This document shows positions 1 through 14,334 of a stretch of 57,447 nt of DNA, one piece after another; positions within the stretch are counted from its first letter, which is position 1, and the number at the start of each line of letters is the position of its first letter. Origin of the DNA: Pirellulales bacterium (GTDB lineage Bacteria; Planctomycetota; Planctomycetia; Pirellulales; UBA1268); assembly GCA_044336985.1 (NCBI GenBank), contig JBIIOK010000004.1, positions 1 to 57,447 of the forward strand, read 5' to 3'. The notes beneath the pieces are model-generated. The model was given only the letters and a program-made list of their open reading frames with translations, was not told where the DNA came from and ran no database searches. The position numbers were made by a program, and so were the translations under genes.

Positions 1-650
1 TGGAAGGCCACGAGCCAGCGGAACGTGACCGGATCGATCGAGGCATCGAGGTGCCGGAGCTGCGCTCCCGCGACGAGCTGCACGTAGGAGGCGATCACGA
101 GGCCGGCGGCCCCGACGCGGGCGGCGAAGGTGCGTGGTCCGGGCGGAGACGACGGCAGCTCAACTGCCTCGGCCTTCCGCGCCGCGCCGCGGGTGAGCGT
201 GGCGACCGCGACCGCCACGGCGAAGAAGAGCGGGCCGGTGCAGGCATGGATCTTGGCGACGGTCTTATCGTCGAGGAGTACGCGGGCGCCACCGAGCAGG
301 CCCTGCACGATCACGAGCACGACGGCCGCCGCGGTAAGGGCACGCACCGCCGGCGAGCGGCTCGTCCGCCAGACCACCGCCGCGAGCACGAGCGAGATCA
401 TCCCCACGAGCGCGCCGAGCAGCCGATGGCCGTGCTCGAGAAACAGGTCCCACGGGCCCCAAAACCACTCGGCCCAGGGAAAGAGAAACATGTTGCGGCC
501 ATACGTCGCCGGCCAATCGGGCACGGCCATCGCGGCTTCGTAGGTCGTGACGAGCGCCCCGAAACAAAGCAGCACCGCCGTCACCGCCACGAGCAGGCAG
601 GAGATGAGATGCGACCAGTTGAAGGAGCGAAGGCTTGAAATCTGAGGCAT
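1..650 (-). CDS. ctaA: Heme A synthase COX15/CtaA family (3' end runs off window)
   Basis: Not in ORF track; manual translation from ATG 650 gives hydrophobic helices with GALVTT..AAMAVPDWP, FLEHGHRLLG, VQGLLGG, KIHACTG; follows oxidase subunit I. Confidence 0.85.
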   Translation of the reverse strand, partial: MPQISSLRSFNWSHLISCLLVAVTAVLLCFGALVTTYEAAMAVPDWPATYGRNMFLFPWAEWFWGPWDLFLEHGHRLLGALVGMISLVLAAVVWRTSRSPAVRALTAAAVVLVIVQGLLGGARVLLDDKTVAKIHACTGPLFFAVAVAVATLTRGAARKAEAVELPSSPPGPRTFAARVGAAGLVIASYVQLVAGAQLRHLDASIDPVTFRWLVAF

Positions 651-712
651 GTTGTTTCTCGACCCATCACCCTCGAGCCCTCACCCTCGCCCCCTCACCC
701 ACGGGGAGACGA

Positions 713-828
713 GGGGATCGGCAGAAGCTCGACGAGCGTTAGGAACTTCCGACCTTCTGAGGAAGGAATCGCCGTAGGTCGTCAGCGGAGGAAGTTTCTC
801 CGCGAGGCGACTTCTGCCGATCCCCGAG
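713..828. repeat. Family E hairpin element, copy 1
   Basis: Perfect 15-bp inverted repeat ggggatcggcagaag (713-727) / cttctgccgatcccc (811-825); related ends at 22546-22624. Confidence 0.6.
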
Positions 829-864
829 TCGGGTTTCCAGTATTTGGGGTGGACCGCCGAAGGT

Positions 865-891
865 CCTTGCTTGCGCTGCGGGCTTCCGTAG
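865..891. repeat. Family D solo arm
   Basis: ccttgcttgcgctgcgggcttccgtag is the reverse complement of the arm at 33180-33206. Confidence 0.8.
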
Positions 892-902
892 AGATCTCCG
901 GT

Positions 903-11092: not shown

Positions 11093-11095
11093 GGG

Positions 11096-12421
11096 TCAGA
11101 AGTTCAGCGAGAATTCGGGGATGCTCACGATGTATTTCAGGTTCAGCGTCCAGCGCAGGATCATCTTGAGCGGAAGCGAGAGCATGAGCAGCATCAGGTT
11201 CGCCATGATCATGTAGCGGATGAAGCCCATCTTCTGGTAGAAGCCGCGGAAGACGGTCACGGCGAGCAGGGGCGGCAGCAGCAGCAGGTAGGCCCCGAGC
11301 ACCACCAGCCCGGGCGCCTCGCGAAGGAGGATGGTGCCGATCTGCGTCAGTGTGCCGGCGCCCTGCGGGGCCCGCGGCAGCGGCCGATCGAGCAGGTTCA
11401 CCCAGAACATCTGCGGCAGGTCGACGTTGTTGAGCACCTCGACCTTGTAGGGCGTCCAATATTCGAACGGCCCGTAGAAATTCCAGTTGGGGCCGCGGAG
11501 GAACGTGCCGAGGATGATCAGCGTGATCCAGAGTTCGAAGAACCCGAACTGGTAGACGAGATAGCTGAACTTCCGCTCCTCGATCGAGTAGTAGCCGTTG
11601 CCCTTCTTGTTGAAGTCGAGATAGGGCATCGCCATCAGGCCGAAGACCACGAGGCTCGGCAGCACGACGCCCGCATACCAGGGATCGAAGTAGACAAGCA
11701 TCTCCTGGAGGCCGAGGAAGTACCACGGAGCCTTCGAGGGGTTGGGCGTCTTCACGCTGGAGGCCGGCTCCTCGAGCGGGGCCGGGAGGAAGATCGCCCA
11801 GACGAGCAGGAAGGCCGACACGGCCACCATGCAGATGAGCTCCGTGTAGACGAGGTCGGGCCACACGAGCACCTTCTCGTCGTCGAGTTTCTCCATCGGC
11901 GGCAGTCCCTGGGCGATCCGTTCGTCGTTGACGACGGCCTGCTTGGTGGCCACCCAAGTGAAGAACGCCAAGAGGAACACGAGCCCCACGATCGGCACGT
12001 TGTCGGGCTTCATGACGATCGCCGCGAAATTCTCGTCTGCCATCGAGAGGCCCATCAGCACGAGCGCCGCGTTGAACACCGACCAAGCCGCCATCGGCTT
12101 CACGAAGAACTTGCGAAACACGAACAGGATCGTGAACAACGCGGTGGTGCCCAGCGTGTAGAGCACCGGCCCCGAGAGCTTGTTGACGAGATTGCGGACG
12201 CTCAGCGGCAACCCGGGCACGAGGGACTCCGAGCCGGAGAGCGCCAGGCTCGCGAGGATCATCATGGCGCCGGAGAACACGGCCCAGGTGATGGCCCAGC
12301 CCGGTTTGCCGTGCTTCCGCCAAAGGAGCAGCGCGGCGATCGCGTTCATGATCGCCAGGCAGGTGTAATACGAGCCGAGGAAGCCGGAGACGTCCTTGAG
12401 GAACAGGCCGTTGGAATGCAT
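11096..12421 (-). CDS. Rieske/cytochrome b complex subunit IV-like protein with extra TM helices
   Basis: VWPDLV..E and PLEEPA....TPNPSKAPWYF (PEWY-equivalent); directly after cytochrome b6-like gene. Confidence 0.82.
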   Translation of the reverse strand: MHSNGLFLKDVSGFLGSYYTCLAIMNAIAALLLWRKHGKPGWAITWAVFSGAMMILASLALSGSESLVPGLPLSVRNLVNKLSGPVLYTLGTTALFTILFVFRKFFVKPMAAWSVFNAALVLMGLSMADENFAAIVMKPDNVPIVGLVFLLAFFTWVATKQAVVNDERIAQGLPPMEKLDDEKVLVWPDLVYTELICMVAVSAFLLVWAIFLPAPLEEPASSVKTPNPSKAPWYFLGLQEMLVYFDPWYAGVVLPSLVVFGLMAMPYLDFNKKGNGYYSIEERKFSYLVYQFGFFELWITLIILGTFLRGPNWNFYGPFEYWTPYKVEVLNNVDLPQMFWVNLLDRPLPRAPQGAGTLTQIGTILLREAPGLVVLGAYLLLLPPLLAVTVFRGFYQKMGFIRYMIMANLMLLMLSLPLKMILRWTLNLKYIVSIPEFSLNF

Positions 12422-12430
12422 GGGGTGGGT

Positions 12431-13204
12431 TTACAGCGGGCCGCTGATGCCGCCGTCCTTTCGCACGCGCCAGAAGTGGATGGCCAGCAGGAGCGCGACG
12501 GCCAGGGGGATCGCGATGCAGTGGAGCACGTAGAAGCGATTGAGCGTCTCCTCGCCCACGAACCGGGCGCCGAGCAGGCCGAACCGCGCGTCGGAGGCGT
12601 CGGTGATCATGTCGATGCCGCCGATGGTGAGGAGCTGCTGGCCCGGGCCCTCGTAGCCGAGGATCGGCGTGGCACGGGCCATGTTCGAGCCGACCGTGAT
12701 GGCCCAGATCGCCAGCTGATCCCACGGGAGAAGGTAGCCGGTGAACGAGAGCAGCAGCGTGAGCAAAAGCAGGATCACGCCGATCACCCAGTTGAACTCC
12801 CGCGGCGGCTTATAGCTGCCGGTGAGGAACACGCGATACATGTGCAGCCAGGTGGTGATCACCATCGCGTGGGCGCCCCAGCGATGAAGCTCCCGCAGGA
12901 TGCCGAGGCTCGTCACGTCGCGCAGGGCGAGGATGTCGTTGTAGGCCCACTCGAGCGTCGGCCGGTAATAAAACATCAAGAGCACGCCCGTGACCGTCTC
13001 CACCAGGAACAGGAAGAAGGTCACGCCACCCATGCACCAGGTGAAAGACAGGGCGATGCCCTGCTTCTTGATCGACACCGGGTGGAGGTGGAGGAAGAAA
13101 TTGGTGAGCATCACCACGATCCGGTTGCGCCGGTCGAGCGGCATCGGATGGCGGAAGATGCTCTTCCAGATCTGTGAGTTACGGATGGTTTCGCCGATGG
13201 CCAT
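12431..13204 (-). CDS. petB: Cytochrome b6-like (short four-helix cytochrome b)
   Basis: WCMGG; LHRWGAH...[20 protein letters not shown]...IHF; C-terminal GISGPL. Confidence 0.93.
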
Positions 13205-13242
13205 GAATCAGGGCTTCGCTGTCGGAGGATGCGGTATGAGTG

Positions 13243-14334
13243 TCAGACCGTGATGAACGATTCGGGGTCGGCCCACTGGCCGAGCTCTTCCTGGAAGGCG
13301 CGGCTCTTGTCGACCTCCAGCTGGCCGTCGTCGGAGACGCGGATCGCGTAGCGCTCGAGCGGACGAGGAGCCGGCCCCTCGAAGTTGACGCCGTCCTTGT
13401 AGAACCCACTGCCGTGGCAGGGGCACTTGAACTTCTGCTCGGCCTCGAGCCAGTTGGGGGTGCAGCCGAGATGGGTGCAGACGGTCTTCAGGGCGTAGAT
13501 CTGCTGCTGCCCCTGGACCTCGCTGTTGACGACCCAGACGCCGTACTGAGCAACGTACTTCGTCTCGACCTTGCCGGTCGGGAAACCCTCCTTGAACCCC
13601 ACCTTGAAACGGCTCGGGGGCTCGGCAAGGACGTTGGGGAACATGTAGCGGGCGAGGCCCAGCGTGAAGAGGCCGCCGGTGACGGAGAGCGCCGTGAATC
13701 CCATCGCCATGAACGAACCGAGGGCCATCTCGAGGAATCCGCGGCGGTCTTCCTCCCCTTCGGCCGCCTTCTTGGCGACCGGCTTCGCCGGTTTTGGCGG
13801 CACTGCCTTGATCGCCGGCGCTGCCTTGATCGCTGGCGCTGCCTTGATCGCCGGCGCCGCCTTGGCGGCATGCTCCACGGCTGGCTTGGGCCGCGGCTCC
13901 GGCCGCGCCGGCGCCTCGGCCTTGCTGACGGGGCCGGGCTTCGCACCCGCTCGGGCGGCCGCAAGGATGCTGGCCGTGTCGCGGGCAACGGCCGCCTTCG
14001 GGGCCGCGGCTTTGGCAGCGGCCGGCTTGGCGGCGGCGGGCTTCGCGGCCGGTTTCTCGGCCGCCGGTTTCGCCGCCGGCTTTTCGGCGGGGGCAGCGTC
14101 GCCCTTGGCCCGCGCGAGTTTCATGATATCGGCGACGCTCGGGCGACCGCCGGCGGCTGGCTTGGCGGCCGCCGGTTTCGCCGCGGCCTTTGTGGCTTGG
14201 GGCTCTGAAGCTGCCGGCTTATCGGCCGCTGGTTCGGCGGAGACCTCTGCAGTTTCGGGGCCGGAACCGCCACCCTTCTGCGCACGAGCGGCCGCGAGAA
14301 TTTCCGCGACCGACATTTTCTTGTTGTCTGCCAT
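13243..14334 (-). CDS. petC: Rieske 2Fe-2S subunit with long Ala/Lys/Pro-rich N-terminal extension
   Basis: CTHLGC, CPCHGS, GPAPRPL; internal Tat-like DRRGFL plus TM helix; start moved to ATG 14334 because the upstream ORF portion is largely antisense to purD. Confidence 0.92.
   Translation of the reverse strand: MADNKKMSVAEILAAARAQKGGGSGPETAEVSAEPAADKPAASEPQATKAAAKPAAAKPAAGGRPSVADIMKLARAKGDAAPAEKPAAKPAAEKPAAKPAAAKPAAAKAAAPKAAVARDTASILAAARAGAKPGPVSKAEAPARPEPRPKPAVEHAAKAAPAIKAAPAIKAAPAIKAVPPKPAKPVAKKAAEGEEDRRGFLEMALGSFMAMGFTALSVTGGLFTLGLARYMFPNVLAEPPSRFKVGFKEGFPTGKVETKYVAQYGVWVVNSEVQGQQQIYALKTVCTHLGCTPNWLEAEQKFKCPCHGSGFYKDGVNFEGPAPRPLERYAIRVSDDGQLEVDKSRAFQEELGQWADPESFITV
13803..13856. repeat. 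3 x 18-bp in-frame tandem repeat (AAPAIK)
   Basis: ctgccttgatcgc(c/t)ggcg three times. Confidence 0.9.

Follow-up and report, generated by a model that had tools for sequence, protein, structure and literature searches.

A Planctomycete Gene Cluster Joining a b6f-Like Quinol Oxidoreductase to an aa3 Oxidase through Octaheme, Cupredoxin, and Diheme Carrier Genes

The window analysed here is the entire 57,447-bp contig C239 of a freshwater Pirellulales genome, and one end of it carries a cluster of ten genes, all co-oriented on the minus strand (14334 down to 3), that joins a b6f-like quinol oxidoreductase to a heme-copper oxidase. In order, the genes code for a Rieske protein, a b6-like cytochrome b, a subunit IV-like protein, an octaheme c-type cytochrome, two cupredoxins (cupA and cupB), a diheme class-I cytochrome c, the oxidase subunits CoxII and CoxI, and the heme A synthase CtaA. 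In most bacteria, one small cytochrome c stands at the place taken here by the octaheme cytochrome, the cupredoxins and the diheme lipoprotein. Functional coupling of the cluster products is well supported, and the cluster probably encodes a respiratory branch that is both complete and self-contained, leading from membrane quinol to O2. The genome (G000) comprises 2.84 Mb on 243 contigs and is 84.9% complete, and the counts of one oxidase and two cupredoxins in it, given below, are provisional for that reason. Its nearest named records are metagenome-assembled genomes (MAGs) from lakes, labeled Pirellulales, Planctomycetia or Planctomycetota.

Gene Layout and Conservation of the Cluster

An initial annotation of this DNA had listed the ten genes, placed them on a single strand and put the gaps between them at about 50 bp or less except before ctaA. 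All ten were found and assigned to families with their cofactor motifs, and the shared strand is the minus strand. From Rieske to CoxI, the intergenic gaps are 38, 9, 3, 50, -23 (an overlap), 14, 39 and 42 nt, which is 38 nt at the first junction and 50 nt at most, and the spacing between coxI and ctaA is 252 nt. The genes that lie between those for Rieske and CuA code for ten c-type heme motifs (8+2) and for two sets of type-1 copper ligands. Neither a gene for an NAD(P) oxidoreductase nor one for a hydroxylamine oxidoreductase (HAO)-like octaheme protein was found in the window cluster by gene calls and Pfam.

Recurrence in many genomes puts the arrangement far beyond chance. A synteny comparison across the phylum had been proposed, with a lack of conserved gene order named as a refuting outcome; this was run at two distances, and the refuting outcome was not seen. 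Within the order, a search with the octaheme protein covered 41 genomes (the window's own, 15 of the same genus, nine from other genera of the family and 16 from other families) and gave a match in all of them at E <= 0.001. Forty of these were strong orthologues, either full-length or cut by contig ends; only a weak match of 29 bits was obtained in genome G035. Twenty regions, one per genome, were compared, and the order Rieske-b6-subunit IV-octaheme-cupredoxins-diheme-CoxII-CoxI-CtaA was kept in every one as far as the contigs reach. Fourteen of these loci are complete from Rieske to ctaA and six are cut only by contig ends. Five carry three cupredoxin genes and the others two.

A stricter first look at the phylum gave an octaheme match at E <= 1e-20 in at least 123 of 401 sampled genomes. 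Twenty loci from other orders and classes were then picked for long contigs and family spread. Rieske, b6, subunit IV and octaheme genes are contiguous in 18 of them, the exceptions being L042, which has another order, and L037, where neither b6 nor subunit IV was detected. Downstream of the octaheme gene, 16/20 have a cupredoxin gene and 8/20 have co-oriented CoxII-CoxI-CtaA; in L048 and L037, oxidase-related genes lie divergently upstream. The diheme gene was not detected in 13/20, and the number of cupredoxin genes varies from one to three among lineages. In L035, from another class, a gene for an amine-oxidase-like flavoprotein (L035:9078-10460, plus strand) lies between the octaheme and cupredoxin genes, and in L036 and L039 that position is occupied by a gap of comparable size.

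The named genome collection was also scanned, using the cupredoxin alignment, and the best 80 of more than 606 matches led to 79 loci. All are from Planctomycetota: 27 have the full order, 20 are consistent fragments and 32 are paralogues elsewhere. The full-order cluster is present in the cultured strain Lacipirellula limnantheis I41 (locus L117). The locus sets are not independent, since some collection loci share genomes with the earlier sets. A reduced cluster of cupredoxin, diheme and ctaA genes, in a stretch that lacks bc and oxidase genes, was seen in L111 (Novipirellula rosea), L102, L118 and L119; that of L111 includes ctaB and is flanked by purD and an ABC transporter, as in the full cluster. 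Homologues of cupA were also found in lake MAG records titled 'Candidatus Kuenenia' (L061, L064, L066, L068-L071 and L124), at 67-76% identity in seven of the eight and about 40% in L124. Five of these records have the full aerobic oxidase cluster and two more have contig-cut fragments of it, and the 'Candidatus Kuenenia' labels look wrong for these MAGs.

Evidence on transcription came from four metatranscriptome runs, all with small shares (0.06-0.11), in which contigs from relatives, 90-99% identical to the cluster, cover all of its genes. These RNA-library contigs bridge five junctions (Rieske/b6, b6/subunit IV, subunit IV/octaheme, cupB/diheme and diheme/CoxII) and weakly indicate co-transcription. 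A scan of window positions 1-15000 gave one sigma-70-like promoter match, where 1.1 were expected. This site (14475..14502, minus strand; TTGACA-16-TACAGT, 10/12) is suggestive through its position alone, in the 222-nt divergent gap upstream of the Rieske gene, on the other side of which lies purD (14557..15948, plus strand). Terminator-like sites numbered 11, compared to 9.8 expected by chance.

Features of the Encoded Proteins

The octaheme cytochrome (11092..6569, minus strand; 1507 aa) has CxxCH motifs at residues 296, 447, 502, 538, 742, 912, 1108 and 1365. Exactly eight such motifs are present in 41/41 loci, the window's and 40 others, over protein lengths of 948-1735 aa, and all eight are column-invariant in the alignment of the 41 sequences. 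Also invariant in all 41 are H427, H440 and five Met-Pro pairs (M675, M795, M1056, M1303 and M1415), and H465 is kept in 40/41. Read as axial ligands, these residues would give about three bis-His and five His/Met hemes. The N-terminus holds a membrane helix (residues 16-34) followed by about 220 aa of a highly charged, Ala/Leu-rich, helical stretch. Heme 1 comes next, then a PDZ-like insert, the c7-like hemes 2-4 and finally hemes 5-8, which lie in class-I-like modules. A search of the PDB gave no solved octaheme homologue. The PDZ-like insert (residues ~347-444; window ~9760-10050, minus strand) had matches that were all below cut-off, to Pfam PDZ (20.5 bits), to HtrA/MamE-type NCBIfam models and to a zinc metalloprotease chain in the PDB. 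The insert is seemingly absent from several distant homologues, where a distance of just 39 to ~60 residues separates hemes 1 and 2.

The strongest evidence in this analysis that the cupredoxin works directly with the octaheme cytochrome is a natural fusion of the two. Protein P0215 (1809 aa), encoded in a Planctomycetota MAG on a 30,244-bp contig (locus L105), holds the octaheme cytochrome and a cupA-like domain in one frame. Its octaheme part is a full-length orthologue with 41% identity to that of the window over 1589 aligned columns, and its cupA-like domain is complete with all ligands. The two parts are joined by a Pro/Ala-rich linker without a signal peptide and, therefore, the fusion is not a simple read-through. 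The same fused frame was found in L096, a separate assembly labeled Pirellulaceae, which is 70% identical to P0215 over 1204 columns and differs in linker length. Since two diverged species have it, the fusion is inherited and not an assembly error. A search for longer proteins did not recover the fusion, but the exhaustive profile search did.

The cupA gene (6518..5736, minus strand) codes for 260 aa with a signal peptide, and its product is expected to be secreted. An ATG at 6569 would give 277 aa; the near-identical homologues listed have 256-260 aa. Its paralogue cupB (5758..4865, minus strand; 297 aa) is 40% identical, starts 23 nt before the end of cupA, and has a lipobox-like signal with a low-complexity linker behind it. 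Pfam was of little help with these two proteins, giving 19 bits for cupA against a cut-off of 27 and no match for cupB. Thirty-two family members from different parts of the phylum were aligned; the ligands H132, C170, H173 and M176 (cupA numbering) are invariant in 32/32, as are P174, W175, C107, N126, D128 and N133. A search of the PDB with the cupredoxin profile found amicyanin at E 4e-6, with HN and CxxHPxM aligned to the amicyanin copper ligands. An AlphaFold2 model of cupA had a mean pLDDT of 93 and a pTM of 0.86, and Foldseek matched it to the PDB 58 times at E <= 0.001, with Thermus NirK (cupredoxin domain), amicyanin and plastocyanins at the top. TM-scores to the target were about 0.7 for amicyanin and 0.66-0.72 for plastocyanin. 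The model and the ligands predict that cupA is an amicyanin-like type-1 copper protein with a cupredoxin fold. A beta-sandwich lies behind the cupredoxin domain, and there relatives score weakly for CarboxypepD_reg/fn3_3.

The exhaustive profile search put the cupredoxin family at 4794 representatives at E <= 1e-30. Members carry the public names 'plastocyanin', 'methylamine utilization protein' and 'hypothetical', and the amicyanin-type ligand pattern is probably behind the second of these NCBI labels. In the window's genome, a profile search found only two cupredoxins, both of them in the cluster. Single-copy cupredoxins of more distant planctomycete loci have lipobox-like N-termini too. Solo paralogues occur in unrelated gene contexts in other planctomycetes, and other architectures of the family (among P0196, P0122 and P0140) include a domain at the end of a kinase-TPR-superoxide-dismutase-like protein, with ligands kept, and tandem doublets.

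The diheme class-I cytochrome c (4850..3600, minus strand; 416 aa) matched Pfam Cytochrom_C over cut-off, with 75 bits in two stretches. Its CxxCH motifs are at residues 103 and 264, and a long low-complexity linker follows a lipobox-like signal. Four loci without a detected diheme gene, L035, L036, L038 and L039, have a cupredoxin gene immediately ahead of coxII; in L035 and L039, the two whose N-termini were read, this cupredoxin has a lipobox-like signal.

CoxII (3560..2760, minus strand; 266 aa) was over cut-off for Pfam COX2 and for TIGR02866 (166 bits). Its CuA ligands H181, C216, E218, C220, H224 and M227 are invariant in 25/25, and it has no fused cytochrome c domain; the same combination was seen in all 11 CoxII genes checked in relatives and at greater distance, those of L035, L036, L038 and L039 among them. 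CoxI (2717..903, minus strand; 604 aa) is an A-family heme-copper oxidase subunit that matched Pfam COX1 over cut-off with 489 bits and TIGR02891 with 604 bits, the latter below the cut-off of 670.75. The motif YSHPAV, which we take to mark the A2 subtype, is present in CoxI of all 23 linked loci. Only one COX1 match and no bd oxidase were found in the genome. The contig end cuts ctaA (650..<3, minus strand) after its first 216 aa (Pfam COX15-CtaA, 58 bits, over cut-off). Contig C71, which has COX3 matches, is collinear with the region downstream of ctaA in the relative L011, where CoxI is followed by CtaA, CtaB, CoxIII, CoxIV and then an ABC transporter. By this collinearity of sequence, the cluster continues past the window end onto C71.

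At the other end of the cluster, the Rieske protein (14334..13243, minus strand; 363 aa) was over cut-off for Pfam Rieske with 43 bits. Among the 38 loci with the gene found, CTHLGC is kept in 38 and CPCHGSGF in 34. An Ala/Pro/Lys-rich extension of 196 aa precedes a twin-arginine motif, RRGFL (residue 197), and a membrane anchor. This extension (window 13747-14334, minus strand) contains a short helix-like motif three times and AAPAIK as a threefold repeat, and 18 nt at 13798 are missing from one relative's RNA-library contig. Relatives at the order level align from residue 1, and those from other orders and classes mostly only from ~150-260.

Cytochrome b is split into b6 and subunit IV, which are two separate genes. 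The b6 protein (13204..12431, minus strand; 257 aa) matched Pfam Cytochrome_B with 137 bits, over cut-off, and is a b6-type four-helix subunit with the heme ligand pairs H107-x13-H121 and H228-x14-H243. Among solved structures, b6 of cyanobacteria and plastids matches it best (E 4e-43). At residue 57 it has CMGG, a form of the heme cn motif CxGG (PMC5600118). CxGG is kept in 36/38 loci, and G replaces C in the other two. The subunit IV-like protein (12421..11096, minus strand; 441 aa) is enlarged, with about 8-9 hydrophobic segments by hydropathy; Pfam Cytochrom_B_C was over cut-off at residues 219-291, and b6f subunit IV aligns to residues 186-298. Its Qo motif is APWY and not PEWY, a known variant clade (PMC4122944), and KAPWYF is present in all 39 loci with subunit IV found. 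No match to cytochrome f (PF01333) over cut-off was found in the genome, and the octaheme cytochrome is encoded instead.

Electron Path and Alternative Explanations

In the path that we propose, the b6f-type Rieske/cytochrome b complex, with its heme cn-containing b6 and enlarged subunit IV, would oxidise quinol, which is assumed to be menaquinol, as in planctomycetes. The Rieske cluster would hand the high-potential electron to the octaheme cytochrome, a membrane-anchored protein that would replace cytochrome f or c1. The amicyanin-like cupredoxins, one secreted (cupA) and one lipid-tethered (cupB), and the lipid-tethered diheme cytochrome c would come next, and electrons would then reach CuA of the A-family aa3 oxidase. 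The second electron would be recycled via the b hemes and heme cn in a Q cycle. We infer both the carrier order and the direction in which electrons move; the two cupredoxins and the diheme cytochrome could act in series or in parallel, and the whole may or may not form one stable particle.

Several observations weigh against a dedicated branch of this kind. The octaheme-cupredoxin module lacks adjacent co-oriented CoxII-CoxI genes in 12/20 distant loci, and in L034 it stands with an NAD(P)-oxidoreductase-like subunit and not with an oxidase; therefore, the oxidase link is not intrinsic to the module. Ten hemes exceed the need of simple transfer. The genome also holds a second bc complex, cut by a contig end (contig C4 ~17,400-20,049; locus L051), made up of a short Rieske protein and a long cytochrome b with PEWY that is fused to a C-terminal cytochrome c domain, and this complex could feed the same oxidase. 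RNA-contig depth is similar just outside the operon (bin 14211-14700, into purD), and DNA carry-over is possible. The 252-nt gap that separates coxI from ctaA holds a dispersed palindromic repeat. Proteins P0121, P0123 and P0161 have a cupredoxin-family domain behind BlaR1-like metallopeptidase sensors with the Cys or Met ligand lost. Retention of the copper ligands thus goes with retention of the respiratory context.

One possible explanation is a hard-wired supercomplex: all cluster products would assemble into a single stable particle, and its ten c hemes and two type-1 coppers would act as a fixed wire from Rieske to CuA. The initial annotation had proposed such a supercomplex, and its count of hemes and copper sites is borne out by the motifs and ligands between the Rieske and CuA genes. 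The tight gene spacing and strict order in 20/20 loci, the fusion in two loci, the predicted membrane anchor or lipid tether on every carrier but cupA, and the lack of any further cupredoxin or oxidase in the genome all favor it, and actinobacterial bcc-aa3 and alternative complex III (ACIII)-aa3 are precedents. We hold this explanation only tentatively, since the long low-complexity linkers after the lipobox in cupB and the diheme protein would suit mobile tethered carriers no less than fixed subunits, the cupredoxin gene number varies and the diheme gene is often undetected in distant loci. A further possibility is a general periplasmic hub, in which a quinol:cupredoxin oxidoreductase serves several acceptors and the oxidase is one of them, adjoining in some lineages. 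The distant loci without adjacent oxidase genes, the solo cupredoxin paralogues, the size of the cupredoxin family and the many hemes for a single acceptor agree with a hub. In contrast, the window's genome shows one oxidase and only the two in-cluster cupredoxins, and the oxidase link is invariant within the order in all 20 loci as far as contigs reach, which leaves the hub doubtful.

Another explanation is that the cupredoxin-like proteins are not electron carriers but copper chaperones or assembly factors for CuA/CuB, and we find this improbable. Their genes do adjoin coxII, coxI and heme A synthesis genes, the reduced cluster of N. rosea is cupredoxin-diheme-ctaA-ctaB with no oxidase genes nearby, and CupA of S. 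pneumoniae, a copper chaperone, is among the weaker fold matches (rank 29). However, the invariant His...Cys-x2-His-x2-Met is the amicyanin ligand set, electron-transfer cupredoxins give the best fold matches, the fusion partner of the domain is the octaheme cytochrome and not an oxidase subunit, and a cupredoxin gene follows the octaheme gene even without a nearby oxidase gene. Least likely of all is reverse or bifurcating operation, in which quinone or NAD(P) would be reduced with high-potential electrons. Kao and Hunte (2014) proposed that the APWY clade works in reverse (PMC4122944), and PMC12954380 summarises NAD(P)-linked proposals for anammox-type complexes. APWY is found here, and the octaheme subunit is homologous to that of the anammox-type locus L034, which has the NAD(P)-oxidoreductase-like subunit. 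Nevertheless, the window cluster has neither an NAD(P)-oxidoreductase gene nor a gene for a donor enzyme, and it is joined to an O2 reductase, as APWY is in all 23 loci with linked CoxI. This operon link speaks against reverse operation as a general property of APWY complexes. A broader combination can be put forward as one possibility among others: a hard-wired heme-copper wire in which the octaheme cytochrome docks the cupredoxins, covalently fused to it in one lineage, and the diheme protein onto aa3 would be the ancestral planctomycete bc complex, with APWY working forward, and the anammox NAD(P)-linked forms would have derived from it by a swap of the acceptor module.

Comparison with Known Systems and Other Features of the Window

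The window shares with b6f and plastocyanin the split cytochrome b, the b6 His spacing, the CxGG motif for heme cn, the Rieske protein and a blue-copper acceptor. In cyanobacteria, the blue-copper carrier also feeds an aa3 oxidase. The b6f complex differs in having cytochrome f in place of the N-terminally anchored octaheme cytochrome and a subunit IV of ~160 aa with PEWY, compared to 441 aa with APWY in the window. In addition, the window cupredoxin has extra beta-sandwich parts and an amicyanin-like C-x2-H-x2-M, unlike plastocyanin, and the bc genes of the window are joined to oxidase genes. The window cupredoxins have the fold and the ligand pattern of amicyanin, but they are longer (~260-300 aa), have extra domains, are often lipoproteins and are encoded after an octaheme cytochrome. 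No methylamine dehydrogenase gene was found in the cluster.

The anammox complexes (Kuste4569-4574 and Kustd1480-1485) combine a b6-like cytochrome b and subunit IV with a cytochrome c of six or eight hemes that replaces cytochrome f (PMC12954380). A multiheme (6-8) cytochrome c subunit encoded after subunit IV is also found in the window, and the initial annotation had given the anammox partner as background. The comparison with L034 (42% G+C) turned this likeness into homology. That locus codes for Rieske, b6, a Pyr_redox_2/4Fe-4S (Fer4) protein, subunit IV and a 948-aa octaheme protein, which is homologous to that of the window with the same eight motifs aligned. Since L034 has the architecture of the anammox complex and a homologous subunit, the anammox multiheme subunit and the window octaheme protein belong to one family. 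The window differs in lacking the NAD(P)-oxidoreductase subunit (Pyr_redox_2 + Fer4 in L034) and in having the cupredoxins, the diheme cytochrome and the aa3 oxidase in an aerobic context.

Two other systems place quinol oxidation next to an oxidase. In SoxM of Sulfolobus (soxEFGHIM), one cluster joins Rieske, cytochrome b, the blue-copper protein sulfocyanin and a heme-copper oxidase; it is archaeal and, unlike the window, is not known to have c-type hemes, and it has another kind of cytochrome b and a single copper carrier. In actinobacterial bcc-aa3 and ACIII-aa3, as in the window, quinol oxidoreductase genes lie beside oxidase genes, and multi-heme c subunits replace soluble cytochrome c. 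Unlike the window, bcc has a long cytochrome b and a diheme subunit. To our knowledge, ACIII has no Rieske/cytochrome b core, and neither system uses cupredoxins or an octaheme subunit. A planctomycete with ACIII adjoining oxidase genes was reported (PMC6995999).

The best NCBIfam matches of b6 and subunit IV were Geobacter ExtP (259 bits) and ExtQ (63 bits), which are also b-type modules coupled to multiheme cytochromes. The scores were below the family cut-offs and, therefore, the window proteins are not members of these families. The window also differs in having a Rieske gene before and an oxidase after these genes.

Each part of the cluster has known counterparts: anammox bacteria have b6-type complexes with multiheme subunits, genes for bc or ACIII occur beside oxidase genes, and blue-copper proteins serve as oxidase donors. 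In the open-access literature, which leaves subscription journals mostly outside, we found no description of the aerobic planctomycete cluster and no account of the phylum-wide eight-heme invariance, the position of the cupredoxin family in the cluster, or the fusion. Genome papers, in the sections available to us, mention 'cytochrome bc1 complexes' only in general terms (PMC6995999), and the localisation of c-type cytochromes in non-anammox planctomycetes was stated to be unknown in PMC4429474. The cluster provides a concrete, testable model for the hardly studied respiratory chain of these bacteria, and cultured strains carry it. The multiheme subunit of the anammox bc complexes is, in this comparison, a phylum-wide trait with eight fixed heme positions and not an anammox speciality. 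A large, mostly unnamed cupredoxin family is tied to a respiratory role by its position, its invariant copper ligands and a natural fusion. APWY-type Qo sites, proposed to run in reverse, are found here in operons with an O2 reductase; if the hard-wired supercomplex were true, they would work forward and oxidise quinol.

The repeat in the coxI-ctaA gap (708-834, minus strand) is ~127 nt long with a 15-nt perfect terminal inverted repeat, and its predicted fold has -63.7 kcal/mol (z -5.2). Full or partial copies, ~71-96% identical by blastn, occur on dozens of contigs of the genome in both orientations, and one copy lies after coxIII on C71. It matched no Rfam family. A small RNA of the locus was considered as the cause of an RNA depth spike at 491-980 and was rejected, because the multi-copy repeat explains the spike. 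No tRNA and no Rfam family was found in the cluster; two mir-55 matches, one per strand, were chance matches to a hairpin. Elsewhere in the window, a TatC gene (47210-48274, plus strand) adjoins a DUF420 gene (48239-48754, minus strand), the latter presumably from the family of CtaM-type oxidase assembly factors. Part of a gene for an ATP synthase alpha/beta subunit lies at 56651-57436 (minus strand).

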